A DNA stretch of 44,161 nt from a virus (IMGVR_UViG_3300032280_001176:1-44161), one strand, 5' to 3'; counted from the stretch's first letter, positions 1-33,659 are shown. The notes: generated by a model from the sequence alone, not told the origin. Translations and numbers: made by a program.

Positions 1-7
1 AAGAACA

Positions 8-214
8 ATGTCCAAGAACTTCCGGCCTCAGGCCTCCGATCCCTATGCGCGTAACAACTCGTATGCTCCCCCTGTTTGGGGTTGGGAGACCGTTGAGCCT
101 GAGTATCAGGATGTCGGAGCAAACGACGAGGGGTATTACTATCAGTGGTGCACGCTCTGCGCTTGTCGAACCGAGCACGACTCTTGTGGTTGTATCGCTT
201 GTGAAACCGCCTGA
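8..214 (+). CDS. small hypothetical protein with Cys-rich C-terminus (possible Zn finger)
   Basis: ORF track; C-terminal CxxCxC...CxCxxC. Confidence 0.6.
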   Translation: MSKNFRPQASDPYARNNSYAPPVWGWETVEPEYQDVGANDEGYYYQWCTLCACRTEHDSCGCIACETA

Positions 215-231
215 AATCTGAGGAGTGCAGA

Positions 232-489
232 ATGTCGTTCAATTCCAAGCTCATTCTGACCAAGTATAACGCAACCGTCGAGGCGAAGCTTCTGGAGATC
301 GTTCATTGTACTGATCCTGGATGGCCGGACTACGTCATGTGGATTGTTGAAACGACCTCTGAGGACACTCCTCGTAGGCTTGAGGGCTACTACACCGTAG
401 GTCCAGAGGGACTTGGTGAGCTTCGGGTCGATGATCACGAAAATCGTCAGTCTGTCGTCTGGGACATTCGGGAGCAACCCTATGTCTAA
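232..489 (+). CDS. hypothetical protein
   Basis: AGGAG RBS upstream of ATG 232; 85 aa. Confidence 0.7.
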   Translation: MSFNSKLILTKYNATVEAKLLEIVHCTDPGWPDYVMWIVETTSEDTPRRLEGYYTVGPEGLGELRVDDHENRQSVVWDIREQPYV

Positions 490-733
490 GCAGCTTCTGT
501 TTTCAGGCTTTGTCAGCGTTTCGATCCTCCTGCTGAGCGGTGTCTTCACGTCTGCGTGCGTCAAATCCTACAACCTCCGAACTGATCGTGCATGGACGAT
601 CCATGACTGCGTGATGGAGAAGTGGATTGAAAGCGAGTCAGCCACGGGTATCATGCCTACGCAGAGCAAAGAGCTGCAATGGCGTCGGCAGTGTGCCCAA
701 GAGTGGAGTGCAATGGCTTCCAAGCAGAGTTAG
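482..733 (+). CDS. membrane-anchored hypothetical protein, paralogue of 1563-1811
   Basis: ATG 482 (MSKQLLF) with GGAG upstream; N-terminal hydrophobic stretch; shares DRAWTIHDCVMEKW...QWRxQCxQEWSAM with 1563-1811. Confidence 0.75.
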   Translation: MSKQLLFSGFVSVSILLLSGVFTSACVKSYNLRTDRAWTIHDCVMEKWIESESATGIMPTQSKELQWRRQCAQEWSAMASKQS

Positions 734-780
734 AATAAAGAGGTAAGGTTAAGGAAAAGAAACTTACTGAAGAGGTTCAC

Positions 781-1239
781 ATGAAGACGCACGCTTACAT
801 GGATTCGCAGCGCTGGTCGAACCGCAACACGTTCACTGAGCCGAACGCGAAGTGCATCCTTCACCTTCGCAAGGGTGACTCGATTCCCCTTTTCATTGGC
901 CGCGGCCGAGATGGCGACCGGGTTGGGATGATCGTTCCCGACATCCAGGAAGGCTACGTGGTTTTCATCTACGAGTCTCGCTACGGTGACTCGTTCTCTT
1001 TCCTCTGCAAGAACGAGAACGAAGCAAAGGAGCGCTTGGAGGCTCAAATCAATAGCCCTACCTTCAATGGTGGCTTGGTCTCCGCGAGTATGGTTGTGGA
1101 AAGCAACTTGACTCTCGCTCTCAACGAGAAAGTTGACGCTGGTAAGTTCGAAGAGTTGTTCATGAACACTTTCTCGCGGATCAGCCAGCAGAACAACTGG
1201 ATGATCCGCGATGGGTGGATCATTTTCGAGGAAGTGTGA
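781..1239 (+). CDS. hypothetical protein
   Basis: promoter 708-736, GAGG RBS, 152 aa. Confidence 0.75.
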   Translation: MKTHAYMDSQRWSNRNTFTEPNAKCILHLRKGDSIPLFIGRGRDGDRVGMIVPDIQEGYVVFIYESRYGDSFSFLCKNENEAKERLEAQINSPTFNGGLVSASMVVESNLTLALNEKVDAGKFEELFMNTFSRISQQNNWMIRDGWIIFEEV

Positions 1240-1317
1240 GACGCACAAGATTGTGACTCAAGAAATGTGCAATGCTTGCCAAGCTTAGTTAAGATAATCT
1301 CACCTAAGAGGTGGCAA

Positions 1318-1563
1318 ATGAAAGTGAAGTTCGATGTGGTATGTCCTGAGGGTGACGACAAGTTCAGTTACTACCCGATGGAAGTGGACTATCGACTGAT
1401 CAAAAACATCGTCCTTCCGGGCAGCTGGAGCGGTGGCTGCATGGTCGAGTTGATCACCGGTCAAGCGATCCATGCGTGTGAATCGTTCTCGTGTCTTAGT
1501 GCTCAGTGGGATCGCTGTCGAGATGCTGACACTTACCTTGCATATATTGCAAAGGAGAAGTGA
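1318..1563 (+). CDS. hypothetical protein
   Basis: ATG 1318 (MKVKFDVV) after promoter 1267-1295 and GAGGTG RBS. Confidence 0.7.
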   Translation: MKVKFDVVCPEGDDKFSYYPMEVDYRLIKNIVLPGSWSGGCMVELITGQAIHACESFSCLSAQWDRCRDADTYLAYIAKEK

Positions 1564-1811
1564 TGAGCAAGGGTTTGCAAGACTTTATCTTGAACGGCAT
1601 CTTGATCTTGTCGGCCTGCATGTTTCTTGCTGCACTTGTCATCGCTTACAACAACCGAATGGATCGGGCATGGACGATCCATGACTGTGTGATGGAGAAG
1701 TGGGTTGATCGTGAGACTGCTACGGGCCGCATCCCTACACACCGGGAAGAGCACCAGTGGCGTCATCAGTGTGTTCAAGAGTGGAGTGCAATGCCTACAA
1801 AGCGGGGTTAG
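1563..1811 (+). CDS. membrane-anchored hypothetical protein, paralogue of 482-733
   Basis: AAGGAG RBS; overlapping TGATG coupling; TM segment; conserved C-terminal block. Confidence 0.75.
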   Translation: MSKGLQDFILNGILILSACMFLAALVIAYNNRMDRAWTIHDCVMEKWVDRETATGRIPTHREEHQWRHQCVQEWSAMPTKRG

Positions 1812-1863
1812 AATAAAGAGGTAAGCTAGGTAAGGAAAAGAAACCACCTGAGGTGATACGATC

Positions 1864-2190
1864 ATGATCAAAGAGCTCAAAGAAGCTTTCCAGCATTCTC
1901 AGCATGTTCCTCTCCAAGTGGTCAAAAAGTGTCAGATCTATCCGGGAGAAGGATGGCACTTCCTCACAAATCGCTCGAACCACCCGCTCAGTGCCTACGA
2001 GGTTCTTCGTCCGGAGTTCCACCTCAATCCGGGTAATGTGGTCGTCGCAGTTGGTTTCAAACATGCTGTTGGAAACGACAAAAAGATTGCCTCTGTCAAA
2101 GTCCGACGGGCTGATGGACTTGAGTTCGAGATCTTCACTTCGGATCTCAAACGTTTCGTTCAGATCGTTGATTTGGGTTACAAAACCTGA
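1864..2190 (+). CDS. hypothetical protein
   Basis: promoter 1786-1814, GAGGTG RBS. Confidence 0.7.
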   Translation: MIKELKEAFQHSQHVPLQVVKKCQIYPGEGWHFLTNRSNHPLSAYEVLRPEFHLNPGNVVVAVGFKHAVGNDKKIASVKVRRADGLEFEIFTSDLKRFVQIVDLGYKT

Positions 2191-2268
2191 GTGTAAGTGA
2201 ACATGCAGTGAGTTAGGATAAAGAGGTAAGGAAACGGTTTCAAAACTCTCACAAAAGGAAGTACGATC

Positions 2269-2517
2269 ATGACCATTCGAAACTACGTTTTCATCATTGG
2301 CAGCGCCGACGACTTCACCTCCGTTGAGCATCTTTTGATGGCGTACGGCGATGGAACGATCAATCATTACAACGCCTCTGTCTTTGAGTATGAAGCTCCG
2401 TGTGAAGACGTCGGGAAGATGACGGGCCGCGAGATCGGGCTGCTCATCGGCTTCGGTCTGGCCTTCGAAAATGGGTGGTGCATGGACGATACTGTCTCTT
2501 ACCTCATGGTGGTTTGA
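2269..2517 (+). CDS. hypothetical protein
   Basis: promoter 2191-2219, AAGGA RBS. Confidence 0.7.
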   Translation: MTIRNYVFIIGSADDFTSVEHLLMAYGDGTINHYNASVFEYEAPCEDVGKMTGREIGLLIGFGLAFENGWCMDDTVSYLMVV

Positions 2518-2519
2518 TT

Positions 2520-2720
2520 ATGGATTTCGACACTTTCAGTTCTCAGCTCAGGGATCTCGTCAACGCCTATATGGAAGGAGGTGGCGATCCCACCTTGTGT
2601 GAAGACGTCCTGACTCTGGTCAAGCTTGATGTTCGCACGGTTTTCAGCCCTGACCTGAATGAGGAGCACAGTCAGTGCCCGGGTGCTGCTTGGTACGATA
2701 CGAGCGCTGAGCTGGATTGA
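2520..2720 (+). CDS. hypothetical protein
   Basis: ATG 2520 (MDFDTF), 2 nt after the previous stop; its stop TGA abuts the next promoter. Confidence 0.65.
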   Translation: MDFDTFSSQLRDLVNAYMEGGGDPTLCEDVLTLVKLDVRTVFSPDLNEEHSQCPGAAWYDTSAELD

Positions 2721-2781
2721 GTGCAAAACTCACTTAGCTGAGTTAGGATAATCAGGTAAGGAAACAACAAAGGAGCATAAC

Positions 2782-2928
2782 ATGCGTATCATCGAGATGA
2801 ACACCGGTGCAGAGCTCTTTCGTGGTACTATCGCTCAATGCGAGTGGTGGATTGATGAGAAGGGTTATCGGATCGTTGCCGATAACGACATGGGCGACAC
2901 CTACTGGGTGAAGTCTATCCGACGCTGA
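2782..2928 (+). CDS. 48-aa hypothetical protein (not in ORF track)
   Basis: promoter 2721-2749, AAGGAG RBS, MRIIEMNTG...WVKSIRR*. Confidence 0.7.
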   Translation: MRIIEMNTGAELFRGTIAQCEWWIDEKGYRIVADNDMGDTYWVKSIRR

Positions 2929-2974
2929 GTGCAAAGTCTCACATACTGAGTTAAGATAAAGAAGGGAGGCGACG

Positions 2975-3046
2975 ATGCGATGCTTTGATTCGGTTGAAGA
3001 GCTCTGGGAGTTTATGCAGGAACTTCGTGCTCTCGTTGATGACTGA
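2975..3046 (+). CDS. 23-aa micro-protein (not in ORF track)
   Basis: promoter 2929-2957, GGAGG RBS, MRCFDSVEELWEFMQELRALVDD*. Confidence 0.55.
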   Translation: MRCFDSVEELWEFMQELRALVDD

Positions 3047-3071
3047 TCTCTAAACAAAAAAGAGGTGACAC

Positions 3072-3275
3072 ATGGCATATGTCGTAGGTAATCCCAAGAC
3101 GAAGAAAGCGGCGAAAGAGATGCTCACCAATGGCGGTGTCGAGTTGTTCGAGCCTGGTTTGGGTCGTATCCCTGCCGATGGCGAGGTATATCTCGAAGGC
3201 CCTCATTATCCCGAGCCTCATCGATGGTATGCCACTGCAAAGATCGTAGGTGGTAAGGTGGTGAAGATCACCTGA
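3072..3275 (+). CDS. hypothetical phage protein
   Basis: GAGGTG RBS; 67 aa with GPHYPEPHRWYA motif. Confidence 0.75.
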   Translation: MAYVVGNPKTKKAAKEMLTNGGVELFEPGLGRIPADGEVYLEGPHYPEPHRWYATAKIVGGKVVKIT

Positions 3276-3326
3276 CATCTGCTCGGCCCAGAGAAAATGG
3301 GTCGACTCGACCATGCACTCGAAAAG

Positions 3327-3350
3327 CCCTGCAACCTTTCGGTTGCAGGG
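3327..3350. terminator. hairpin between convergent gene blocks
   Basis: CCCTGCAACC-TTTC-GGTTGCAGGG perfect 10-bp stem. Confidence 0.6.
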
Positions 3351-3418
3351 TAATTCCATGTATAGTTTCCAGTCTACCATTTGTTTTAGCTGAGTATCAG
3401 ATCCGCTCAGCTGATGTG

Positions 3419-3610
3419 TCAGTCCACAAAATCGCCTGACACAGGAAGAAGTTGGGCGAGACCCAAGAACGGAACTTCGTCTTCTTCGACACTTGAGATG
3501 TCTTCTGCAATGACTCGAAGCAGAGCAGCACACTCGAGAGGATGACCCATCTTTTCAAGATAGAGATTCGCCATTTTGACAATCTGATCGCGAACTTCTT
3601 CGTAGTTCAT
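3419..3610 (-). CDS. hypothetical protein
   Basis: promoter 3647-3675, GAGG RBS. Confidence 0.65.
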   Translation of the reverse strand: MNYEEVRDQIVKMANLYLEKMGHPLECAALLRVIAEDISSVEEDEVPFLGLAQLLPVSGDFVD

Positions 3611-3700
3611 TTTGATCGCCTCACGTTGTTCTTCTTTGTGTAAGATATCTTATCATCAGGGATCGTGTTATGCACTCAAACTGTCATCAGCGCAGGGTCG

Positions 3701-3728
3701 AGGGACCGGTGCATTTACAACGGTCCCT
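3701..3728 (-). terminator. hairpin after winged-helix paralogue 1
   Basis: AGGGACCG...CGGTCCCT stem just past the stop at 3734. Confidence 0.45.
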
Positions 3729-3733
3729 GGAGC

Positions 3734-4291
3734 TCAGCTGTTCTTCCGAGCACGGCGAGTCTTTTTACCCTCAACCGGAACCTCAACCGGGGTCTCAACC
3801 GGGACCTCAGCCTCAACCGAAACCTCAACCGGGACCTCAACCTCAACCGGGGTCTCGACCACCGCCGGAGTCCGAGCCTCCTCAGTCAGACGCCAGAAGA
3901 TCTGGAAGTTGTTGTCCGAGAGCTTGACCGACTCCAGGACACCCTCGTCACGAAGGTTTCGCAAGCACTGGAGGATGTTGTCCCGGTGCTTGGACTTGTC
4001 AAGGCCAGAAGCCTTGAGGACATCGTCGAGGCGGAACAACTTCTCGGTTCCACCGGCAGTGGTCGCAACCGCTTCTCGAACGGTATCGGAGATCGCGTCG
4101 ATCTCAGCCTTCCGAGTCGACCGGGTATCACCACGGTTAGCCTTCTTGGACAGGATCAGACTACCCGAGGTGTCCAGCTCGAGGAGACCTTGAGTCGAGA
4201 GCTCGAAGATCTGAGCGGGGGAGAGGTCGCCGATCGAACGGCGAGCGGTGTTGATGGACTCGAGAGTCGAAGGGGAGAGAGGCTTAGCCAT
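3734..4291 (-). CDS. winged-helix-like protein, paralogue 1, with acidic (VE/P) repeat tail
   Basis: MAKPLSP start with GGAG RBS; FRLDDVLKASGLDK..HRDNILQCLR.LRDEG.LESVKLSDNNFQIFW is nearly identical in 3 copies; helix-turn-helix-wing pattern is inferred. Confidence 0.8.
   Translation of the reverse strand: MAKPLSPSTLESINTARRSIGDLSPAQIFELSTQGLLELDTSGSLILSKKANRGDTRSTRKAEIDAISDTVREAVATTAGGTEKLFRLDDVLKASGLDKSKHRDNILQCLRNLRDEGVLESVKLSDNNFQIFWRLTEEARTPAVVETPVEVEVPVEVSVEAEVPVETPVEVPVEGKKTRRARKNS
3769..3862. repeat. intragenic tandem repeat (CCTCAACCGG(G/A) units) encoding VETPVEVEVPVEV
   Basis: seen directly in the sequence. Confidence 0.8.
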
Positions 4292-4380
4292 GATGAACTC
4301 CAAACTACTTGCTGTTTTACCGTGGGGAACCTTTCCCCTTGGTGAGATTATCCTAACTTAGTTGGGAGATATTTACACTT

Positions 4381-5007
4381 CTACTTCCGGCGGTGGGGGT
4401 TGATCGCCACGAATCGTCCAAAGAAGCTCGGGTCCGAAACCCGCGGATCACCAGCCGGGACAAACTCTCGGTCGATGTGGTAGCCCCACGAGTGGCTCGC
4501 ACCCTCAGGAGGAGTGAAGCGAGGACCACAGACCATCACGGTCACAGTACCCGGAAGAACGCTGTCCACCGTGTGGAACTCGTCATAGTACGCAACGTTC
4601 TTGTCACCGGCGAGGTAGGAGCGCTTGGACTGAGCGCCGTTCTTGTACGTGACGGTCTCTTCGTAGCCTCCAGCGATGATATACGAAACGAAGCTCACAC
4701 CGTAAAGCTCGTCTTCCTTGTCATCAATCTTCCAAGAGTGGTTGTGCGGATCCCGCCGGGGGTCGGGAGCAGACCAGTAGTTGATCTTGATGGTCCCGCC
4801 AGGACCGTCATAAACGACCACTTCGGTCTTGTAGGAACCACCGTCAGCGTCGGGCACGTGAATCGGCCGCGCGGTGAAGAGCGGCGCCAAAGTCGCTGCC
4901 CCTGTGGCGACGGTCGAGGAGCCGAAGCTACCCACTCCCATGCGCTCCTCCCGATCCTTGATTTGAGAGTAGGCCTCGTTGATGATGTCGATCACGTTCG
5001 CGTTCAT
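4381..5007 (-). CDS. cupin-fold protein
   Basis: PHNHSW...FVSYIIAGGYEE...FHTV cupin motifs; AAGGAAG RBS before ATG 5007. Confidence 0.7.
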   Translation of the reverse strand: MNANVIDIINEAYSQIKDREERMGVGSFGSSTVATGAATLAPLFTARPIHVPDADGGSYKTEVVVYDGPGGTIKINYWSAPDPRRDPHNHSWKIDDKEDELYGVSFVSYIIAGGYEETVTYKNGAQSKRSYLAGDKNVAYYDEFHTVDSVLPGTVTVMVCGPRFTPPEGASHSWGYHIDREFVPAGDPRVSDPSFFGRFVAINPHRRK

Positions 5008-5072
5008 GTTTCTTCCTTCGGCAGAATCATCTGCCACTGTGGTTGGGGACACTAAACTGTTTGGTTGTTTGT

Positions 5073-5318
5073 TTATCGCCAATCGGCATGTTCAAACTTG
5101 CGCTTGATGATGCGCTCGCGCTCGGCGCGATTCCACCGCCACCGGTTCCAGGTGGTCCGAATCTTGTCATATGCGATCGCGGCGACGACCGAGACGAGCA
5201 CCAGACCGAAAATGTAAACGAACCCTCCTTCTGCCCAAAGGAACTGGTCCGCCATCTGCTCACCATCGTCGCGGTAGACGATAATAGACTCGGTGCTCTG
5301 AATCATGGGACTATGCAT
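5073..5318 (-). CDS. small membrane protein
   Basis: promoter 5357-5385, AGGAG RBS, one TM helix followed by a basic tail. Confidence 0.65.
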   Translation of the reverse strand: MHSPMIQSTESIIVYRDDGEQMADQFLWAEGGFVYIFGLVLVSVVAAIAYDKIRTTWNRWRWNRAERERIIKRKFEHADWR

Positions 5319-5414
5319 GGTAAGCTCCTTTGTTGAAAGGGTGGGAGGATGAGATTATCTTAACTTGGTTAGGAGAGTTTTACACTTACCTGTCCTATCT
5401 TAGAAGATAGGATC

Positions 5415-5714
5415 CTACCGAAGGTTTGACAGAGCCTCCGTGATCGAGGCAGGCAGGCTCTCCACCTGCTCTGTGGAATTGCTACCAGACGGTTTGTAGT
5501 AGATGGTCGGCGTTGCGGTCGCGGCGCGCAGCAGGCCCGCGGCCGTGTCGACGATGACCTCGATGTACACGACCGCGTTGCAGGTCGGGCTGATCGCTGA
5601 GATCAGCTCGGCCACCCCCTTGGGACCCCAGCCTCGAAGGAGTCCCGGGATAACCTCGACTTCGGGTGCCTCTCCGGGGTGACGGATGACGTATTGGGTA
5701 CCGATGGTGACCAT
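5415..5714 (-). CDS. hypothetical protein
   Basis: promoter 5748-5776, AGGAG RBS. Confidence 0.7.
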   Translation of the reverse strand: MVTIGTQYVIRHPGEAPEVEVIPGLLRGWGPKGVAELISAISPTCNAVVYIEVIVDTAAGLLRAATATPTIYYKPSGSNSTEQVESLPASITEALSNLR

Positions 5715-5790
5715 TTGTCTTTCTCCTGAAGGGTGGGAGGATGAGATATCTTACCCTGGCCGGTGGAGGTTTGCACCTCCACCCCGGTTG

Positions 5791-6057
5791 TCAGTTGTTC
5801 TCTACAAGAAAGAGCATGTCAGGAGCATCGGCATGTGACACACGGCGCTCGATCAGTTTCTTCTTCTCGAGAGATTTGACTAACTCTCTCGCTTGGTCAA
5901 GCGTTTGTTTCATACCCGGCGGGGAAATGAATGAGTTGCGCACAATGAACCACAAGAGACCATGGTCATCTTCGAAGACCGCATCAATACCGTGATGGTT
6001 GAAGAACTCCCTCATACGGTTCAACGCGAACATTTCGTGAATCGTGAGATTGTGCAT
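5791..6057 (-). CDS. hypothetical protein, possible winged helix
   Basis: promoter 6088-6117, AAGGAG RBS; ARELVKSLEKKKLIERR resembles a wHTH recognition helix plus wing. Confidence 0.65.
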   Translation of the reverse strand: MHNLTIHEMFALNRMREFFNHHGIDAVFEDDHGLLWFIVRNSFISPPGMKQTLDQARELVKSLEKKKLIERRVSHADAPDMLFLVENN

Positions 6058-6118
6058 AGCAACTCCTTCAAGGTGGGAGGATGAGATATCTTACCCTGGC
6101 CGGGGGGAGGTTTGCACC

Positions 6119-6550
6119 TTAGTCTCTGTCTCCGAAAAAGTCTTCTCCGTCCTTTTCGCATTCGATGATTCGTGCGGTGATCTTAGCTCGACCGGCGTCG
6201 GTGTACCAGTCTTCGTATACTGAAGACCACCGTTCAGCGTTGGTGCCAGTCATCAGGTCAGTGAATGGCTTTGCCAGAGTGGCGATGTCAGGCAGAACTT
6301 CAAACGTCGAGGTGAAGAAGGCAATCCACGACCAAGTGTCGAAGCCCTCCTGACTGTCATTGTACGAGCCGCTGGGGATCCTGACGACTGCTACAAGGCC
6401 GTTTTCCAGCAACCAGATTGGGTCCTTGATCTTCGCGGCATTTTGAACGTCGCGGGCGTCAAAGCCCAAGCTAGACATGTCTTCGACTTTGATCTGTCGA
6501 GAACCCGAAGGCAACATCGAAAGAACGTCATCGATGGTGTAAATAGGCAT
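6119..6550 (-). CDS. hypothetical protein
   Basis: promoter 6587-6615, AAGGA RBS. Confidence 0.7.
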   Translation of the reverse strand: MPIYTIDDVLSMLPSGSRQIKVEDMSSLGFDARDVQNAAKIKDPIWLLENGLVAVVRIPSGSYNDSQEGFDTWSWIAFFTSTFEVLPDIATLAKPFTDLMTGTNAERWSSVYEDWYTDAGRAKITARIIECEKDGEDFFGDRD

Positions 6551-6629
6551 TGCTTGTTCCTTACCTTGAAGCGGGGAGGATGAGATATCTTACCCCGGCC
6601 AGGGGAGGTTTGCACTCACCTGACGCATC

Positions 6630-6836
6630 CTAGAAGATAGGATAATCCCGGTGGTCGTAGGTGATCATCAGTTCGCAAAGGATGTCGTCAACTTCATTCA
6701 CGGTGCTCGCCAGAGGCGACGAGTACACGTTCCACCCAATGTGCTTGTGCAGAAGGTACATCGTCTTGCTGATGAGACAAGAGGTGACGTTCGCAGCAGT
6801 TCCAATGAGCCAGTGCAACTGAGTGTTCGTGGACAT
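6630..6836 (-). CDS. hypothetical protein
   Basis: ATG 6836 (MSTNTQLH) with AGGAG RBS, promoter 6880-6908. Confidence 0.65.
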   Translation of the reverse strand: MSTNTQLHWLIGTAANVTSCLISKTMYLLHKHIGWNVYSSPLASTVNEVDDILCELMITYDHRDYPIF

Positions 6837-6931
6837 ATCGTTCTCCTGAAGAAGGATAGTGGAGCGGGAGGATGAGATTATCTTAGCCCCGCCGGGGGAG
6901 GTTTGCACCTCCACCCGGTCGACCCTGCCTT

Positions 6932-7174
6932 CTACTGGGGGAGGAACTTTTCCACCGCCCAGGCGATCTGGTTGTGCGTCATGCCACCAGCCAGAAGGGC
7001 GGCCTCGAGAGCGTCGGTCACCGGGCAAGGATCAGGCGTACCAGCGATGAACTCGGCGATCGCCTCCACCAGCATGGGGGTGAGCTCGTTCCGCCACTCG
7101 ACGGGGTCGCAGTCACCCTGGCCGGGCACGGTGGAGTTGAACTGGATGTCGTTGTCAATGTCAAGGGAGATCAT
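6932..7174 (-). CDS. hypothetical protein
   Basis: promoter 7227-7256, AAGGA RBS. Confidence 0.7.
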   Translation of the reverse strand: MISLDIDNDIQFNSTVPGQGDCDPVEWRNELTPMLVEAIAEFIAGTPDPCPVTDALEAALLAGGMTHNQIAWAVEKFLPQ

Positions 7175-7276
7175 GTGAGTTTCCTTGGTGTGGGAGCGAG
7201 TGGGGAGGAGTGGGGGAGGATGAGTTATCTTATGCCCGCCGGGGGGAGGTTTGCACCTCCCTGGCGCCTGGGTGAT

Positions 7277-7510
7277 TTATCGGCCTGCGGCGCGCTCTTC
7301 ACGGTAGAGCTTCACGTTGGTCTCCGTGACTCGCTCGTGATACGCCATCTGCTCTTCGTGCACCGCGTCGAGCCAGCGCGCGTAAGTGTCACGGTAGCAA
7401 GACGCAAGCGACGCGTGAGCGAGCGCCGTGCGGAGGTAGATCAGACGCGCAGGAAGAACAACTTGACACTCACGAGCCATACGACTGTAGTAGACGACAT
7501 CGAACTTCAT
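7277..7510 (-). CDS. hypothetical protein
   Basis: ATG 7510 (MKFDVVYY) with AAGGAG RBS. Confidence 0.65.
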   Translation of the reverse strand: MKFDVVYYSRMARECQVVLPARLIYLRTALAHASLASCYRDTYARWLDAVHEEQMAYHERVTETNVKLYREERAAGR

Positions 7511-7575
7511 CTCAGCTCCTTCGTGTAAGTTATCTTGCACCGGCGATCATATGCGTTCGACCCTGCACAGGAGGA

Positions 7576-7595
7576 GCCGGCCCCGAAGGGCCGGC
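7576..7595 (-). terminator. hairpin after winged-helix paralogue 2
   Basis: GCCGGCCC-CGAA-GGGCCGGC; cUUCGg tetraloop on the minus strand. Confidence 0.6.
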
Positions 7596-7607
7596 CCCTC
7601 AAGTCAC

Positions 7608-8024
7608 CTAGCTCAGAGCTTCCGGGCTGAGCTTCCAGAAGATCTGGAAGTTGTTGTCCGAGAGCTTGACCGACTCCAGGTGACCAGCATCCCGGAGATC
7701 ACGGAGGCACTGGAGGATGTTGTCCCGATGGGTGGCCTTGTCGAGGCCGGAGGCCTTGAGGACGTCGTCCAGACGGAAGAGGCGGTCGGTGCCACCAGCG
7801 ACCTTCCCGACGGCCTCCTCCACGGTCATCCGAATCGAGTCGATCGCCTCCTTCTTGGCACTCCGGGTCTCACCGCGGGAGGCTTTCTTCGAGAAGGCCA
7901 GAGCACCAGTGGCGTCCAGCTCGAGGAAACCACCCGTGCTGAGCTCGAAGATCTGGACAGGGGTGAGGTCGGTGACCGGGAGAGCGAGGGCAGCGAGGAC
8001 AGTGGGGGAGAGGGGCTTGGCCAT
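7608..8024 (-). CDS. winged-helix-like protein, paralogue 2
   Basis: MAKPLSP...NNFQIFW; GGAG RBS; promoter 8082-8110. Confidence 0.8.
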   Translation of the reverse strand: MAKPLSPTVLAALALPVTDLTPVQIFELSTGGFLELDATGALAFSKKASRGETRSAKKEAIDSIRMTVEEAVGKVAGGTDRLFRLDDVLKASGLDKATHRDNILQCLRDLRDAGHLESVKLSDNNFQIFWKLSPEALS

Positions 8025-8387
8025 GATGAACTCCAGAGCGACAGTTGGTTCCTCGGGGGAGGATTCCCCTTTGGTGAGATTATCCTAACTCGAACTTTTG
8101 AGATTTGCACCTCATTTCGAGTTACCGAAGAAGTGGACCTCGGGAGGAGCGCGCGGTGCCGATCGACCCTGCCCGCCGTTCCTTTCCTTCCTTTCCTCCT
8201 TCGTGAGAATATCATAAACTGAAGCGGGGATATTTGCACACACCCTGACGGGGAGGACCTAAGCTGCCTCAGCAGATGGGTGTGCAAAGGCTCGGCGGGT
8301 TGTTTATAATAATCTCACCACCACCCCGGTAAGCGAGGAGGTGGCCGCGGCAGCAGGGTCGACCCGAACGAGGTCGGAGGAGCGCAG

Positions 8388-8618
8388 ATGTCGTCAATCC
8401 GCTACACCCACACTCACCAAGAATGTGATGACTGCAACCGAAAGGGCCCTGGCTTCTGGTTTGAAGATCGAGGCATTCCCGTCTACTTCGCTTGCCAACC
8501 CTGTGCGTCCTACAACGTGGCGGGGGCAGTGCTCCGAGACGCGATCGAGTCGCACAAGGAGAAGGCGTTCACTCGCATGGAGAACTCGCAGCGTGCAACC
8601 CGCGAGATCTCAAGTTAG
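8388..8618 (+). CDS. small zinc-finger protein
   Basis: CDDC...CQPC; GGAGGAG RBS; promoter 8282-8310. Confidence 0.7.
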   Translation: MSSIRYTHTHQECDDCNRKGPGFWFEDRGIPVYFACQPCASYNVAGAVLRDAIESHKEKAFTRMENSQRATREISS

Positions 8619-8646
8619 GATAAAGAAGTAATCAGGAGGCTTTGAG

Positions 8647-8910
8647 ATGCGCAATCGCACGATTTGGTTGGCACCTTATCGGCTGTGGGGTCAGCGAGAC
8701 GGATTGTCTCGGCAGAAGGCTGAAGAGAAGCTCGATGCCCTCACCGCCGCCGACTGGTTCTACATTCGCGACGAGTACCTCGAAGCTTCTCTGGTCAGTG
8801 ACTGCGAGTTCTGGTTTGCAGTTCCCTACACATCGATCGGCCGAGTCGAGCTTCACATGGGCTCTCGGGGGATCCGGGTAGACGGCAAATACCTGGGTCA
8901 CTTTTCCTGA
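8647..8910 (+). CDS. hypothetical protein
   Basis: promoter 8593-8621, AGGAGG RBS. Confidence 0.7.
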   Translation: MRNRTIWLAPYRLWGQRDGLSRQKAEEKLDALTAADWFYIRDEYLEASLVSDCEFWFAVPYTSIGRVELHMGSRGIRVDGKYLGHFS

Positions 8911-8973
8911 GTGCAAACTCGGCTCAACTAGGTTAAGATATCTCAGCCAACCACCCCAACAAAAGGAAACGCC

Positions 8974-9129
8974 ATGCTCACGTACTCCATCACCGGTCAA
9001 CGGATTCAGGCGGCGCTCGAAGTGCATCTCTTGATTGGTGAGCTGTTCGTCGGTCTGTTCTCCGGCTCGTATTGCGAGGAGGTAGTGGGTAGTATTCTCA
9101 GCACGTGGGAACCGTGGATCGAAGTGTAA
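8974..9129 (+). CDS. 51-aa hypothetical protein (not in ORF track)
   Basis: promoter 8911-8939, AAGGA RBS, MLTYSITG...PWIEV*. Confidence 0.65.
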   Translation: MLTYSITGQRIQAALEVHLLIGELFVGLFSGSYCEEVVGSILSTWEPWIEV

Positions 9130-9344
9130 TCTCTCCTCAGTTGGCCTGAACGGGTCGACTGAGTCGACCCTGCTGCCGTGCAAACTCCAAGGGGCGGAGG
9201 TATGATAGAATCCTTGCCTGATTCACGAGGTTTGCTTCAGATATCTTAGACAAGCGCCATCTGAGGGTAAAAACAAGCTCACGTCTCCTGTCAATCTGAG
9301 ATCAACAGAGACGTGCAGGTGTGCAGACTGAGCTGCAGGGTCGA

Positions 9345-9362
9345 GCACCCCTTTCGGGGTGC
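9345..9362. terminator. hairpin between convergent units
   Basis: GCACCCC-TTTC-GGGGTGC. Confidence 0.6.
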
Positions 9363-9373
9363 CTTGTCAGGGG

Positions 9374-9538
9374 TTAGTACTCATCACCGTAGATGTAGTC
9401 CTTTCGAGCACGCATCGGAATCTCAACCGGAGGCTCGAGATGCTCATTGATCACCGATCGACCGACACGACGACTGAAGTTGTGGTTCCACTTCTTCGAC
9501 GTTTTCTTTTCGAGAGTCTTGTTCTTGACGAGGCTCAT
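9374..9538 (-). CDS. small basic hypothetical protein
   Basis: ATG 9538 (MSLVKNK) with AAGGAG RBS, promoter 9576-9604. Confidence 0.6.
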   Translation of the reverse strand: MSLVKNKTLEKKTSKKWNHNFSRRVGRSVINEHLEPPVEIPMRARKDYIYGDEY

Positions 9539-9583
9539 TATCGATCTCCTTCTTTGAACCACCGTTGGTGAGAATATCTTATC

Positions 9584-9823
9584 TCAGGTGAGAGCGCTTA
9601 GCACCTTCAGCACCTCAGGTGTGGTCTTGATGCGCAGGTCACCCCCTTCGTCGAAGCTGATCACTGAGCGAACTTCGTCCACCCAGAAGACGAACGCAGT
9701 CTTGTCGTACATGGCCCGCTTGATGAACTCAGAAAGTTCACCGACTTCGTAGCTGTTGTCGAGATAACCGGACGCGTGCAGGTAGGCCGCGGCCTGGATG
9801 TAGGCAGAGAACTTCTGCGTCAT
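9584..9823 (-). CDS. hypothetical protein
   Basis: promoter 9867-9895, GAGG RBS. Confidence 0.7.
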   Translation of the reverse strand: MTQKFSAYIQAAAYLHASGYLDNSYEVGELSEFIKRAMYDKTAFVFWVDEVRSVISFDEGGDLRIKTTPEVLKVLSALT

Positions 9824-9999
9824 AGAGTACCTCGCTTGTTGCGGGAACCTGAGGGGTTATAGAGATATCTTACGCTGGGGTGGAGAGCTTTGCACTCACC
9901 GCCTGATGCATCTTGCGCCCCGCGAAGTTTCCTTCGCGGTGGCCGATTTCCACCGTCCCCTCGTGAGATTATCTTAACTTGCGATTTCAGGATTTGCAC

Positions 10000-10200
10000 T
10001 TTGCGTGATCTTCGCTTGCCGTGTCTTGCGCGTGGCGCTGAAGTTAAGATAACTTGCGCCCGCTGTTCTCTGTGCGCTGAGAGTTGCGCCGTGTAAAGAG
10101 CACGCGTCTTATGTATCTCACGCCCTGCTGTGCACGGCGCAGCTCGTGCCCCGGCGTGCTCTTTCTTTCCGGTCTTTCTCCCTTTCCCTTCGACCCTGCA
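10000..10200. repeat. non-coding repeat element E1 (lacks the conserved head)
   Basis: degenerate RYRTCTYRYR units; tail CTCTTTCTTTCCGGTCTTTCTCCCTTTCCCTTCGACCCTGCA. Confidence 0.75.
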
Positions 10201-10236
10201 CCCAGGAGATATCTTACGCCCGGGAGAGAAGACGAA

Positions 10237-10264
10237 AGGGGTCACCCCCGAAGGGGTGACCCCT
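10237..10264 (-). terminator. hairpin after winged-helix paralogue 3
   Basis: AGGGGTCACCCC-CGAA-GGGGTGACCCCT, 12-bp stem, UUCG loop on the minus strand. Confidence 0.7.
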
Positions 10265-10269
10265 GCCTT

Positions 10270-10683
10270 TCAGGCGAGGAGCTCGTCGGTCGCCTTCCAG
10301 AAGATCTGGAAGTTGTTGTCCGAGAGCTTGACCGACTCCAGGAGGCCTTCGTCGCGGAAGTCGCGGAGGCACTGGAGGATGTTGTCCCGGTGGGTGCCCT
10401 TGTCGAGGCCGGAGGCCTTGAGGACATCATCGAGCCGGAAGAGGCGGTCAGTGCCACCGGCGGAGGTGAGGACCGCCTGGTACACACCGGGCTTGATGGC
10501 CTCGATCGCCTCCTTCTTGGCGGTTCGCTTCTCACCACGCTCGGCCTTCTTGGCGAAGGCGAGGGCACCGTCCTTCAGCTCGAGGAAACCACCGGTGGCG
10601 AGCTCGAAGACCTGCACCGGGGTGAGGTTCTCGATGGAGGTGTTGAGGGCAGCGAGGACAGAGGGGGAGAGGGGCTTGGCCAT
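10270..10683 (-). CDS. winged-helix-like protein, paralogue 3
   Basis: ATG 10683 MAKPLSP with GGAG RBS; promoter 10742-10770. Confidence 0.8.
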   Translation of the reverse strand: MAKPLSPSVLAALNTSIENLTPVQVFELATGGFLELKDGALAFAKKAERGEKRTAKKEAIEAIKPGVYQAVLTSAGGTDRLFRLDDVLKASGLDKGTHRDNILQCLRDFRDEGLLESVKLSDNNFQIFWKATDELLA

Positions 10684-10893
10684 GTTGGACTCCAACTTTA
10701 CTTGTTTGTTACCTTGGGGATCCTTTCCCCTTGGTGAGATTATCTTATCCAGATCCTTTTGGATTTGCACCCATCAGGATTCCGAGGGGTTGTGCTACCA
10801 CTTCGACCGCAGCCGCACCGTGACCACCGCCACCGCCGACCGCCACCGTCCCCTCGTGAGATTATTTTATCTTGAGCTCGGGACGTTTGCACC

Positions 10894-11203
10894 CGACCCT
10901 GCAGCTGAAGATATCTCAGGCTCCGTGTGGCGCTCTGGGAGCGAGATATAATAAGCGTGACGCCGAGGTGGGGATGAGTGCTGCAGGGTCGGGTTCGTCG
11001 TGGCTTGCGCTTCGCGTATCTCGCGCTTCACGTGTCTCGCGTGCCCAAGTAGGTTGAAACGCGCTTATTGCATCTTGCGCTCTGCTGTTTACACTGAATC
11101 TTACACGCGTCTGTGTATGCGACGTCTTGCGCCACGCTGAGTCCGTCGTATCTTACGCGTGCTCTTTCTTTCAGGTCTTTCTCCCTTTCCCTTCGACCCT
11201 GCA
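10894..11203. repeat. non-coding repeat element E2
   Basis: head CGACCCTGCAGCTGAAGATA...GAGATATAATAAG; repeat core; conserved pyrimidine tail ending CGACCCTGCA. Confidence 0.8.
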
Positions 11204-11286
11204 GCCGAGGAGGCCGTCCCTTTCGGGAACAGCCGAGGTCAGGTTCGAACCAGGTGGGAGCAAACCTTTGACTTAGCATTGATCAA

Positions 11287-11324
11287 CTCAGGATGTACCC
11301 CACCGAAGCAGGGTACATCCTGAG
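11287..11324 (-). terminator. 14-bp hairpin after gene 11335-11520
   Basis: CTCAGGATGTACCC-N10-GGGTACATCCTGAG. Confidence 0.6.
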
Positions 11325-11334
11325 GATTTGAGTG

Positions 11335-11520
11335 TTAGTCGATGGAGAGATCGACGGTCACCTCGGAGTTGTCAGCCCACTTCTTGAGGAACTCAGCCAG
11401 GGTGGCGACCTCGTCCGGGTTGCACAGGTTGCCACAGAGAACGGCGAGCTCTTCACCGTTGTAGTTGTCCACGACGATGGCGGTGAAGTCAGTGCCCATG
11501 TTGGTGCGGATGTTGTCCAT
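11335..11520 (-). CDS. hypothetical protein
   Basis: ATG 11520 (MDNIRT) with GGAG RBS; promoter 11564-11592. Confidence 0.65.
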   Translation of the reverse strand: MDNIRTNMGTDFTAIVVDNYNGEELAVLCGNLCNPDEVATLAEFLKKWADNSEVTVDLSID

Positions 11521-11684
11521 ATTGAACTCCGTGCTTTGGTTGGTTGGTTGGATCAACTAGATTATCATATATTGGTTACAAACCAAATACACCGATAATC
11601 CATGCATCGAGGAGATATCCTATCCTTCGGATCATCCATCCCCTCGATGATATTATCTTATCTTGATCCTGTGATATTTGCACC

Positions 11685-12023
11685 CGACCCTGCAGCTGAA
11701 GATACTTTAGGCTCCGTGCAAAATGCTGAGAGTGAGATATGATAAGAGGGACGGCGCATCTCGCGCTCTACTCATCTCGCGCTGAGCGTGGCTTGCGTGC
11801 CTCATGTGTCTTGCGCTCTACTCATCTCGCGCTTCACACAGCTCGCGCTCTGCGAACACACTACATCTCGCACACTCAGCAAACGCACACTGTGTCTTGT
11901 GCGCCGGCCGCATCTCGCGCTCTGACGTGTGCATGCTGTATCTTGCGCGCTGCAGGCAGCAAGCCGCATCTTGCGCTCGCGACCCTTTCTTTCCAGGCTT
12001 TCTCCCTTTCCCTCGACCCTGCA
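11685..12023. repeat. non-coding repeat element E3
   Basis: head CGACCCTGCAGCTGAAGATA...GAGATATGATAAGAGGGA; about 10 RYRTCTYRYRC units; conserved tail. Confidence 0.85.
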
Positions 12024-12093
12024 CCCCTTGGGTGACAGGGAGAAGAGATCGAGAACCGAGGGCCGGGGGACCGTAGCCCCCCGACCAGACTGA

Positions 12094-12426
12094 TCAGACG
12101 TCGCCCATCTCGAGGACAGTAGCCTCAGGGAAGAAGTCGTGACCGATCTTCAGGTTCTTCAGTTTGAGCTCCCGATTGTCGATCAGCTCGCAGCGAGGAG
12201 TGAAGCTCTCATCGATCCCCAGCTCCTTGGCGAAACCGTACCAGTCCTCGAGAATGTAGGTGTGAGTGACGCCCTCGACCTCGACCACGAAGATCCCGGT
12301 CCAGCCAGGGGAGAACCCCTTCTCCTCGTTCGTGTCGAGCCAGTCACCGTGGGACCAGATCTCCTTCTCATCACCACCGAAGAAGGAGGAGAGCTTGACT
12401 TCACTGTTGATCTTCAAGATCATCAT
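12094..12426 (-). CDS. hypothetical protein
   Basis: AAGGAAG RBS; promoter 12512-12540. Confidence 0.7.
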   Translation of the reverse strand: MMILKINSEVKLSSFFGGDEKEIWSHGDWLDTNEEKGFSPGWTGIFVVEVEGVTHTYILEDWYGFAKELGIDESFTPRCELIDNRELKLKNLKIGHDFFPEATVLEMGDV

Positions 12427-12544
12427 ATTGATCTTCCTTTCCTCAAGGATTTTATTTTGAGATCCAAGGAAGATATTTCCTTGGGATTTCTTTTATCTCC
12501 TTGATGAGATTATCTTAACTCGAACTTTTTAAAAAAACACCACC

Positions 12545-12875
12545 CGACCCTGAAGAAATTGTGTTAAGATCTGAGGGCGAGATATGATAAGAGGGACAAC
12601 GCATCTCGCGCTCTGAGTATCTCGCGCTCTACTCATCTCGCGCTCTGCCTGTCTCACACGCCTCATGTGTCTTGCACTCAGCGTGCTCAGTGTGTCTTAC
12701 GCGCCAGCCGCATCTTGAGCTCAGCGGAAGCATACTGTGTCTTATACGCCAGCCGCATCTTGAGCTCAACAGTGCGCACGCGAGCGTGCGCCATCTCGTG
12801 CACCCGGCCACAAGCCGCATCTTGCGCTCTGTGCTCTTTCTTTCAGGTCTTTCTCCCTTTCCCTTCGACCCTGCA
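12545..12875. repeat. non-coding repeat element E4
   Basis: head CGACCCTGAAGAAA...GAGATATGATAAGAGGGA; repeat core; conserved tail. Confidence 0.85.
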
Positions 12876-12951
12876 CACGGCGCGAAGGCGGAAAGGGAGC
12901 AGACCTCTCTCCCGGGAGAGGAGGGGGTGCTGTCCCCCCTCCTGAGATCAC

Positions 12952-13269
12952 CTACTTGACTTCGTGGACACGGTAGGGATGCTCATCCTGGGTCAGAGAA
13001 GACTGGACGATGTTGTCGAACATCCAGTCGTCGTAGTCCTCGAAGGAGGGACCAGCGTGAGTGGAGAGCTCGATCGCGTTGATCGTCGCGAGGATCTCCT
13101 CTTGAGTTCCATACCACATGTAGAACCCGCCGGTGACTTCCTCTTTGAGACCCTTGCCGCGGATTACGGCGATCATCTTGTCGAAGTCCTCCTCGGTGAG
13201 ATTCTCGATATCATAAAACTCCCAGGAGGCAAGGAAGGAATGGAGAGAAGTGGAGAGACGGTACGTCAT
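12952..13269 (-). CDS. hypothetical protein
   Basis: ATG 13269 (MTYRLS) with AGGAAG RBS; promoter 13355-13383. Confidence 0.7.
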   Translation of the reverse strand: MTYRLSTSLHSFLASWEFYDIENLTEEDFDKMIAVIRGKGLKEEVTGGFYMWYGTQEEILATINAIELSTHAGPSFEDYDDWMFDNIVQSSLTQDEHPYRVHEVK

Positions 13270-13388
13270 GTCGATCTTCCTGATTTCAAGGATTTTATTT
13301 TGAGATCCAAGGAAGATATTTCCTTGGGATTTCTTTTTATTCCTTGATGAGATTATTTTATCTTGATTTTTTATAAAAAACACCGAAT

Positions 13389-13666
13389 CGACCCTGAAGA
13401 AACTTGTGCTAAGATCCGAGAGTAAGATATGATAAGAGGGATGGCGTATCTCACACGCTGAGTATCGTGTGCTCTACCTGTCTCGCGCTCAGCGTGTCTC
13501 GCACGCCTCAAGTGTCTCGCGCTCAGCGTGTTCAGTTGAAGCATACAGTGTCTTACGCGCCAGCCGCATCTTGAGCTCAGCTGCGTGCGACATCTCGTGC
13601 AGCCGGCCGTATCTTGCGCTCCGCGCTCTTTCTTTCCAGGCTTTCTCCCTTTCCCTCGACCCTGCA
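13389..13666. repeat. non-coding repeat element E5
   Basis: head CGACCCTGAAGAAA...AGATATGATAAGAGGGA; repeat core; conserved tail. Confidence 0.85.
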
Positions 13667-13706
13667 GTGCTGAGAGATGAAAGACAAATGCGGCACAGAC
13701 ACGAGA

Positions 13707-13738
13707 GTGTGAGAAGAGGACGAAACCTCTTCTCACAC
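13707..13738 (-). terminator. 13-bp hairpin after gene 13748-14023
   Basis: GTGTGAGAAGAGG-ACGAAA-CCTCTTCTCACAC. Confidence 0.6.
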
Positions 13739-13747
13739 CCCTTTGCT

Positions 13748-14023
13748 CTACAGCAGCATCTGGGCGGGCCGGTAGGACTCAGTCTTGTCATCCCACCACT
13801 TGATGTAGACCTCGAAGCCGTCAGGGCCCCAACCGGCTTCTTCGATCTCGCCGCCAACCAGCCGGCGCGAGCCCACGGGCAGATCGACGTCTTCCGGGTG
13901 ATCGACGCGGATGTAGAGCCCCTTCCATGCCTTCATGAATTGCGCAGTGTACTTGCGCTTCCACGCGTCCAGGGCATTGTTCGCTTTGTCGATCTGAAAA
14001 GTACCATCAAACAGCGTATCCAT
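13748..14023 (-). CDS. hypothetical protein
   Basis: ATG 14023 (MDTLFDG) with GGAGG RBS; promoter variant 14041-14069. Confidence 0.7.
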   Translation of the reverse strand: MDTLFDGTFQIDKANNALDAWKRKYTAQFMKAWKGLYIRVDHPEDVDLPVGSRRLVGGEIEEAGWGPDGFEVYIKWWDDKTESYRPAQMLL

Positions 14024-14589
14024 AAACACCTCCTACTTCTATCGTAACACGGTTTGGGTTAGAAAGCACCGAGAGGTTGAACCAGCGAGAGCTCGCCTGG
14101 GGTTGACCGTTGCCACCATCCCCTCGATGATATTATCTTATCTTGACCGGTCGGGCTTTACACTCACGGGCGGTCGAGCCTGAGATGAGAGCTCGGTGTG
14201 GTTGGGAGCGCCCGGGGCTAAGATAAGCAGCTCGACAGCGCTGGAGGGGGCCCCTTCTGCAGAGTGCAGACAGCTGTGCAGAGGGCTATTAGGGGGCTAT
14301 CTGCGAGCTGTGCAGAGCGCCCGGGGCCCCCGCCCAGGGGGCGCGCTAGGCCCCCCGCCAGCCCACCGGCGGGCCCTGGTAGCACAGGCACCCCCTTAGT
14401 CCTCTCTTACTTCTCGGGAAAATCCCAACAACTTTTACTAAACCTGCGACCCACCAGCAGCACTTTTCCCCTCATCTAAAAATATAGACAACCGTAAATG
14501 GCTAAACTTGGTCAAGTCCCAAAAATTTCCGGAGAATTTTTCCAAAACTTTTTATAATTACAACATAATTAGCAAAGAGGATTAAAGTT

Positions 14590-15303: not shown

Positions 15304-15317
15304 TAAAAAGTAAAAAT

Positions 15318-15347
15318 CGCGCCGCAAATGCGGCGCGTTTCTTTTTT
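15318..15347 (+). terminator. rho-independent terminator
   Basis: CGCGCCGC-AAAT-GCGGCGCG followed by TTTCTTTTTT. Confidence 0.8.
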
Positions 15348-15504
15348 CACACAAAAATTTCCGGAGAATTTTTCCAAAACTTTTTCGAAACATGCGATCA
15401 TCTGTAGGGGGCATGACGAGAGTAAATCAGGCGAAATTCATCTTATTTTTATTTTTTAATCTGATTAACATATTTAGTCTGTATTAATTTTGAATAGGAC
15501 ACAT

Positions 15505-16239: not shown

Positions 16240-16261
16240 TCTTATTTTGAAGAGGACGCAT

Positions 16262-33613: not shown

Positions 33614-33659
33614 TTAAACGACACTATTTATATACGTTATGATTAACCCAGGAGAAAAA

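Follow-up and report, generated by a model that had tools for sequence, protein, structure and literature searches.

Polar direct repeats beside the gene for a winged-helix protein are known from the P2 Cox and TubR-tubC arrays. According to PMC7652899, the RNA CsrB carries its repeated motifs in weak hairpin loops or single-stranded regions, and PMC3475682 reports that the pseudo-ToxI repeats of phage phiTE expand. The PeSLs of T4-like phages are described as repeated intergenic modules of a terminator and an early promoter, which lie between small genes and form sites of gene gain, loss and exchange (PMC4122927; pointer PMC4503421). Here we report five related non-coding elements, E1 to E5, that alternate with single small genes at positions 10000-13666 of a single 44-kb virus record, IMGVR_UViG_3300032280_001176:1-44161; this whole stretch of 44,161 nucleotides (nt) is called the window below. 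We tentatively interpret E1-E5 as multi-site decoy RNAs, comparable to CsrB or pseudo-ToxI and built on a new motif, at a probability of about 45%. This reading was chosen because the promoter at every large array faces no gene and because contigs from presumed RNA sequencing runs trace the elements, observations that are hard to explain otherwise.

In the proposed mechanism, modules composed of a promoter, an array and a tail would give rise to stable RNAs of 145-290 nt that soak up a sequence-specific binding protein by means of repeated RUCUYGCGC sites. The region would be expressed early from host-type sigma-70-like promoters and would be present in two copies per genome, so that ten templates with ~4-11 sites each could provide a high titration capacity soon after infection, and the copying of ~40 sites into many transcripts should make this titration effective. 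The motif would be recognized as a linear sequence and not as a covarying hairpin, with the invariant tail as a second conserved contact. The target might be a host RNA-binding or defence protein, or else the phage's own winged-helix protein, in which case the RNA would compete with its DNA sites.

Layout and probable transcription of the elements

The coordinates of E1-E5 and their alternation with single genes, as proposed in an earlier note on this DNA, hold, and most of the layout is reproduced by independent contigs. From left to right, the order within a module is the leftward promoter of the left gene, CGACCCTG, a rightward promoter, the array, a tail ending in CGACCCTGCA, a hairpin, and the 3' end of the next leftward gene. 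The features are:

10000..10200, plus strand: E1; internal rightward promoter-like site at 10021-10050 with its -35/spacer overlapping a unit, two more units, tail; predicted RNA of ~145 nt
10894..11203, plus strand: E2; CGACCCTG head, promoter 10925-10952, inverted CGACCCTG at 10984-10991, seven units, tail
11685..12023, plus strand: E3; head, promoter 11716-11743, 9-10 units, tail
12545..12875, plus strand: E4; short head, promoter 12561-12588, 11 units, tail
13389..13666, plus strand: E5; short head, promoter 13406-13433, eight units, tail
9971..9999, minus strand: leftward gene promoter adjoining E1
10237..10264, no strand: terminator-like hairpin right of E1, a predicted fold

E2-E5 begin at CGACCCTG (10894, 11685, 12545 and 13389) and carry the promoter-like sites ascribed to them; a further site of this kind is found in E1, to which the earlier note had not extended the claim. 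The leftward promoters standing back to back with the heads lie at 10864-10892 (E2), 11655-11683 (E3), 12512-12540 (E4) and 13355-13383 (E5). All five elements end in the pyrimidine-rich tail of ~45 nt with CGACCCTGCA, in three alleles rather than the two originally described, E1 differing from E2 and E4 at one base. Predicted hairpins comparable to that of E1 are located at ~12058-12081, 12919-12943 and 13707-13738, and only a weak one follows E2. In total, CGACCCTG has 17 copies in 3693-13664, four of them inverted; the elements share 30-45 identical bases, and their guanine-cytosine (GC) content is 57-61%. As far as tested, this layout is not a collapsed-repeat artefact: a related locus (L043) matches 11156-12548 at 99.1%, another (L051) matches 13286-14369 at 99.6%, and DNA run X4, from a study other than that of the run X1 used below for depth, has contigs at 11174-11665, 11997-12471, 12847-13315 and 13637-14145. 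Among the pieces listed, no independent one covers the interior of E4.

The degenerate core RYRTCTYRYRC occurs 26 times on the plus strand of 10000-13666 and never on the minus strand, against a mean of 0.2 (maximum 2) in 200 shuffles, which bears out the claim of a repeated core; four more copies lie in 1-9999 and one in 14500-44161. By applying the tail pattern we collected 54 metagenome stretches; when these, L001 and the window were scanned with a stricter pattern, 73 matches resulted, 41 of them distinct and 40 after L059 was dropped. Seven loci (L039, L044, L052, L059, L063, L069, L082) were rejected as chance matches, being devoid of arrays. The arrays of the 40 distinct elements have 1-12 units, a variation comparable to that of CsrB-type sponges (PMC7652899) and of the expanding pseudo-ToxI repeats (PMC3475682) and counted in favour of decoy RNAs; 137 distinct units define the consensus YGY-RTCTY-GCGCTC. 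Open reading frames called mechanically are present across the elements (e.g. 11739-12035). Homologous arrays, however, vary by units of 16 and 25 nt, so any reading frame is broken and the view that no credible gene lies inside can be kept in this form.

Database searches connected the elements to no known family: Rfam has no match at the gathering score in the whole window (two weak matches in 9000-14500 are far below threshold and neither falls within an element), and GenBank phages gave no match to the region or to the winged-helix protein described below. Searches of the open-licence literature (PMC, bioRxiv) returned no account of this layout or motif; an uncharacterised entry in supplementary catalogues of predicted phage RNAs is possible. 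Loose pattern scans of viral contigs returned chance matches (31 loci in one scan, 12 of 13 in another), and the head pattern, like a single-protein scan of these contigs, had zero matches.

The promoter signature is conserved across homologues. RTGYNN is placed exactly 16 nt upstream of TA[TAC][AG]AT in 14/14 head-type elements, where only the -35 box and the spacing count as independent, since the heads were chosen by the -10 pattern. With a looser pattern, widened after the TTGATG subtype was seen, a plus-strand promoter match was found in 25 of the 40 distinct elements, including 12/12 of those with at least seven units and full context; the other 15 comprise five that are cut off, eight of a sister type situated 3' of a plus-strand gene (the gene being seen in seven), and two with none. 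The same looser pattern gave no match on the plus strand of 3600-8100, a 4.5-kb block of leftward genes taken as a control.

Two wastewater runs of one study, X17 and X19, whose RNA label is a guess, contain contigs that trace the elements. After partial foreign fits were dropped (three in X17, one in X19), three of six genuine X17 contigs and both genuine X19 contigs have 90% or more of their length within an element (P ~0.005 and ~0.003, respectively, versus random placement in 9000-14400). E2 is represented by X17 at 10965-11192 (depth 7.1), E3 by X17 at 11808-12014 (9.5) and X19 at 11755-11983 (3), and E5, the deepest, by X17 at 13436-13657 (27.1) and X19 at 13436-13660 (5.1), both starting at the same position. 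E4 has no such contig, and no genuine contig of either run was found in 14.3-28.9 kb; their absence from E1, E4 and 1-9 kb is not read as silence. We consider it likely, on indirect evidence, that E1-E5 produce small RNAs as discrete transcripts. The earlier proposal of a multi-site non-coding RNA family is supported in part, by the conserved promoter, by the contigs on E2, E3 and E5 and by the lack of an Rfam match. A conserved unit structure is not supported, since covariation is absent and the folding z-scores disagree.

A further non-coding unit of related design lies to the left of E1:

9165..9400, plus strand: related non-coding unit without an array; CGACCCTG at 9165, promoter 9178-9206, inverted CGACCCTG at 9336-9343, hairpin

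It is traced by an X17 contig at 9205-9400 (depth 8.4). This unit is kept in five relatives (L036, L042, L053, L072, L076) and is a second candidate non-coding transcript, which folds better on the minus strand (z -3.4) than on the plus strand (-1.6).

Unit structure and a possible role of the motif as DNA

Several observations weigh against the decoy RNA interpretation, beginning with structure. No covariation is seen around the RTCTY core of the 137 distinct units (123 paired versus 121 expected at the first position, 104 versus 104 at the second). The array elements are inconsistently structured, with a mean z of -1.5 on the plus and -1.0 on the minus strand (26 elements), the plus-strand mean being driven by the sister type. 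Unit cores are predicted to be unpaired (0.64-0.87 versus 0.30-0.38 for the remainder), which speaks for decoy RNAs, but they are just as unpaired on the minus strand. The pairing of the 5' AAGAGGGA with the tail, suggested in the earlier note, was rejected: cognate duplexes are no better than shuffled or non-cognate ones, and the purine run is common after ordinary -10 boxes, with AAAGAGG/AAAGAAG following those of gene promoters at 708, 1786, 2191, 2929 and 8593. Tail conservation (eight close variants of the last 34 nt across 40 elements, including a lineage with winged-helix genes only ~50% identical) speaks for the decoy interpretation but follows in part from the search itself, which used a tail pattern to collect the homologues.

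The RNA-run contigs have weaknesses of their own. They carry no strand, all come from the one study with the guessed label, and the two runs were found by words taken from 9000-16000. The 3' ends at 13657 and 12014 fall exactly 30 nt into 39 nt common to E3 and E5 and are thus assembly breaks, the assembly word length presumably being 31, and the start at 13436 is only 3 nt past the -10 box. Two runs recorded as RNA, X18 and X20, cover genes of the terminal repeat at a depth of 2-5 with no discrete element contig, and one X20 contig leads from a variant of E3 across the tail and on into the adjacent gene. Finally, units are kept where no plus-strand RNA is predicted: at 9908 and 7529, across promoter -35/spacers, and on the antisense strand of a sister-lineage gene.

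The unit is a linear sequence motif. E1 folds about equally on both strands (z -3.3 on plus, -3.2 on minus), and for E1, the unit at 9207-9400 and three further subtypes, covariation was uninformative at 1-4 sequences each. The sister-type element, L037:2285-2560 with seven homologues, consists of a long hairpin followed by an E-type tail at a point where rightward and leftward genes converge. In eight related sequences, with the structure taken from the same alignment, 12 of 43 pairs of this hairpin are changed on both sides, a value reached by 0/500 shuffles and compared with 1-3 pairs in slid controls; G-U intermediates occur on the plus strand. This hairpin is counted in favour of an RNA.

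The alternative of DNA binding arrays, already raised in the earlier note, is the main rival. In it the units act as DNA: the phage's winged-helix paralogues would bind these polar arrays of direct repeats cooperatively and use CGACCCTG as a second operator, so as to repress or time the flanking divergent early promoters, and the RNAs would be stable by-products or serve to clear the arrays. We regard this explanation as less probable than decoy RNAs, but as a close competitor. The features concerned are:

10270..10683, minus strand: cassette gene between E1 and E2; 137 amino acids (aa), predicted C-terminal winged helix, candidate motif binder
7608..8024, minus strand: second winged-helix paralogue (75% identity), with one unit (7529) and CGACCCTG (7558) after it
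3734..4291, minus strand: third winged-helix paralogue, extended at its C-terminus by repeats; an inverted CGACCCTG (3693-3700) lies just beyond the stop
9908..9918, plus strand: isolated perfect unit flanked by two leftward promoters, with no plus-strand RNA predicted across it; also in L042, L053 and L076

For the gene between E1 and E2, 196 homologues were found, and three paralogues lie within the window. Its product was modelled at a predicted local distance difference test (pLDDT) score of 91, as a single winged helix. The model has no Foldseek match at E<0.001, and in VIA its best match has Z 9.1 and a root-mean-square deviation of 1.9 over 65 aligned residues; MarR/PadR-type regulators rank at the top and RNA-binding SelB scores Z 7.2-7.4. 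There is no Pfam or PHROG match to the protein, including any to a Rep initiator family. Such a fold match is generic, which counts against the operator explanation. In its favour, CGACC[CT]TG lies at most 260 nt downstream of the winged-helix gene in 19 of the 20 distinct copies with that much downstream sequence and a unit in 18 of 20, versus 2/10 and 1/10 for other leftward genes of the window, a count biased by the choice of loci by their tail. The head CGACCCTG falls between two back-to-back -35 boxes in 12/14 heads, that is, in DNA that neither promoter transcribes, and it is also present upstream of other promoters (e.g. 9165/9178); it is likely to be a DNA-level protein site.

The commonest unit spacing, 16 nt, is seen in 32 of the 105 distinct spacers; 25, 18, 26, 28, 34 and 54 follow, none falls at 10-13 or 19-22, and this distribution also points to DNA operators. 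Winged-helix initiators do bind direct repeats according to PMC4980987; the same source reports that a half-turn offset abolishes cooperativity at plasmid iterons, and 16 nt is ~1.5 helical turns. Helical phasing was not used as evidence because no single period stood out: 9-9.5 and 13 fitted equally well or better than 10.5. Arrays are missing from two distant phages in which a single remote winged-helix homologue and this promoter class are present, a point in favour of the operator explanation. On its own, this explanation accounts neither for the promoter before every large array nor for the RNA-run contigs.

An 81-aa gene of the sister lineage (L046:721-1017, L055, L057, L062, L068) keeps the unit within its coding sequence. 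GCGCGAGAT occurs twice in each of four full-length leftward copies with identical codons: same-residue pairs share the codon in 30/30 cases at the sites and 191/285 outside (per-position p ~0.03), and one site is shifted in L068. In L062 two paralogues of the gene converge, and only the leftward one contains the unit, the flipped one having none. The fixed codons and the absence of the unit from the flipped paralogue favour a role in DNA.

The same gene bears on a further explanation, by which E1-E5 are multi-seed antisense RNAs whose units each pair with GCGCGAGAUG, either in a host RNA or in leftward mRNAs of the phage; exchanges of C for U and of A for G would then reflect G-U wobble against a fixed target. 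Four unit positions indeed vary almost only between C and T or A and G, and all nine sites seen in the sister-lineage gene present the perfect complement GCGCGAGATG in mRNA sense. We nevertheless consider it very unlikely: no terminal-repeat gene of the window carries the target in a position weight matrix scan, the other C positions do not tolerate T, and the isolated sites at 9908 and 7529 are imperfect as targets.

The decoy and operator functions could also be combined. One motif would then serve as both DNA operator and RNA decoy: the winged-helix family would bind at promoters and in genes, and shufflable array RNAs would titrate the same protein, or a host defence protein, at a dose set by unit number. 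We hold this combination to be unlikely.

Other observations concern these genes and promoters. Repeats of 12 and 18 nt at 3769-3870 encode the Pro-Val-Glu-rich C-terminal extension of the third winged-helix paralogue. At 8164-8200, in the leader region of the second, CGACCCTG is followed by a pyrimidine run, the two parts of the tail in swapped order. A small Lys/Arg-rich open reading frame at 9374-9538 on the minus strand (54 aa from its ATG) has homologues in seven loci and is a second candidate nucleic-acid binder. In promoters of 1267-9999, the -10 box and following bases often form a near-palindrome (TAAGATATCTCA) with one half resembling the array unit, which is possibly an operator overlap or the origin of the unit. 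In a distant relative (L033:11036-17346) a cluster of tRNA-like genes stands behind the same promoter class, and an 87-nt tandem repeat occupies 17387-17821.

Genomic setting and cassette shuffling

The elements are situated at the inner end of an early-gene region that was delimited by the depth of DNA run X1, a GC step and promoter class:

1..14400, no strand: long terminal repeat/early-gene region; right boundary at ~14.3-14.5 kb; 1-9000 included by inference only

Contigs of X1 within 9000-14145 have a depth of ~20-21, compared with 10.3-10.5 in most bins of 16.3-28.9 kb, a 2:1 step of the kind a long direct terminal repeat gives. The depth data cover positions from 9000 on, and 1-9000 is assigned to the repeat on the basis of composition and promoter class. 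GC content is 50-62% in the first 14.4 kb and drops to ~35% beyond. The first 14.4 kb are densely packed with small genes of unknown function, each downstream of a promoter of the GTGYAA-N17-TAAGAT type, which has 36 distinct matches below 15 kb. The part with ~35% GC encodes PrkA/YeaG, DUF444, SpoVR, PhoH and UvdE. One relative is a 196-kb viral contig, and relatives come from river, lake, estuary and wastewater samples. No host was assigned, the search giving one 29% match in bacterial genomes and 31-34% matches in phages. The window yielded no tRNA or tmRNA, and no core virion or replication gene was recognized in it by Pfam or PHROG.

This position agrees with an explanation in which the elements form a genome-end signal for DNA traffic, either an injection stop like the iss of T5, a transcription-activated replication origin, or packaging-initiation sites. 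The elements mark the inner end of a terminal repeat that makes up ~7% of a roughly 200-kb genome, all units have one polarity, and the T5 iss is described as a repeat-rich non-coding stretch at the same position (10.1101/866236). However, that stretch is a single block of conserved order with DnaA boxes, whereas here five interchangeable modules vary in number and order. The consensus DnaA box has no match in 1-14500, and no AT-rich unwinding element is present in the elements, given their GC content. We rate a genome-end signal as highly improbable.

The cassette genes between and beyond the elements, in addition to the winged-helix gene listed above, are:

11335..11520, minus strand: cassette gene between E2 and E3, function unknown, no Pfam or PHROG match
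12094..12426, minus strand: cassette gene between E3 and E4, function unknown, no Pfam or PHROG match
12952..13269, minus strand: cassette gene between E4 and E5, absent together with E4 in L051
13748..14023, minus strand: last cassette gene, right of E5

The comparison with related genomes that the earlier note had proposed was run and revealed variation in unit number and in the order of the genes between the elements. In L051, E4 and its gene are missing, and the junction falls within a promoter segment that is duplicated. Crossovers that add, drop and reorder single-gene cassettes are likely to take place in the heads and tails that the elements share. Such shuffling is compatible with the decoy interpretation and with all its rivals alike, including one in which the elements serve recombination alone, as PeSL-like anchors: gene conversion would homogenise the promoter-terminator modules, and the arrays would expand neutrally. 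The varying cassette order, the loss in L051 and the 30-45 shared bases agree with mere anchors. Intragenomic gene conversion would not keep tail and motif nearly unchanged across lineages at 50% protein identity, and the motif within a coding gene and the extra promoter facing no gene are left unexplained, which makes this the least probable of the explanations considered. The earlier note had made no mention of the terminal repeat, of the paired divergent promoters, of shuffled cassettes or of the linked winged-helix family.

At the boundary of the terminal repeat, 14196-14400 comprises the last rightward promoter-like site and then a very GC-rich stretch; the promoter is kept in ~10 related loci, and the stretch is possibly a packaging or end-formation signal. 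Further features of the phage body include a DUF444-SpoVR-PrkA/YeaG operon at 31102-35594, PhoH-PIN at 38296-39660, UvdE at 29054-30022 and a fatty acid hydroxylase at 22890-23336. Several body proteins (window 14590-17044 and L001) share an N-terminal MK(L/I)T/S...LR(K/R)L(I/V) peptide, which we take to resemble a capsid-targeting leader by analogy.

Significance and comparison with known systems

Very few cases of decoy RNAs made by phages are known to us. If our tentative interpretation is true, a freshwater phage group that is widespread would encode five paralogous multi-site RNAs in its early terminal repeat, and these would lead to a new nucleic-acid-binding protein of host or phage, with the motif as bait. 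If the units act as DNA, a new winged-helix regulator and its site would be obtained. Under either reading, PeSL-type gene shuffling would be extended to the terminal repeat and to far more elaborate spacers. One motif serving as DNA operator and RNA decoy would be categorically new; otherwise a decoy RNA and a PeSL-type module are kinds already known, with a motif new to Rfam.

Like the T5 injection-stop region as described in 10.1101/866236, the locus is non-coding and rich in repeats, and it lies where a long terminal repeat ends on its inner side; T5 is reported to have one conserved block with DnaA boxes there, and this phage has several shuffled modules without them. With iteron arrays (PMC4980987) it shares polar direct repeats adjoining the gene for a winged-helix protein, here a predicted one. 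It is unlike them in its irregular spacing (16, 18, 25-28 nt), in having no AT-rich unwinding element and no DnaA boxes, in the promoter through each array and in the interleaving of five copies with genes.

Among RNAs, pseudo-ToxI (PMC3475682) and the AbiF antitoxin RNA RCd22 (PMC12373285) are, as E1-E5 would be, phage-borne non-coding RNAs with repeated motifs, described as neutralising a protein by direct binding and as shifting in copy number by expansion or recombination. E1-E5 differ from ToxI-type RNAs in having no Rfam match, in their irregularly spaced units of 11-16 nt without covariation, and in occupying five separate loci. The resemblance to CsrB, CsrC and RsmZ, as these are presented in PMC7652899, lies in a promoter-driven (here by sequence signature) non-coding RNA, a few hundred nt long, that repeats a short motif in many degenerate copies, and in the presence of several paralogues per genome. 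Unlike CsrB/RsmZ, the motif is RUCUYGCGC and not GGA, the elements are phage-encoded with an invariant pyrimidine tail, and the motif also occurs in DNA contexts. GGA is found 0, 1, 0, 1 and 0 times on the plus strand of E1-E5 and 2-4 times on the minus strand, all or mostly in the tail, and the elements have no match to an Rfam Csr/Rsm family.

With PeSLs the locus has in common modules of a stem-loop and a sigma-70-like promoter between small variable genes, as well as gene gain, loss and exchange between relatives. In PeSLs as described in PMC4122927, the stem-loop is directly upstream of a single promoter, whereas here 200-330 nt with a second, opposed promoter, an array and a tail are placed in between, and the setting is a terminal repeat.

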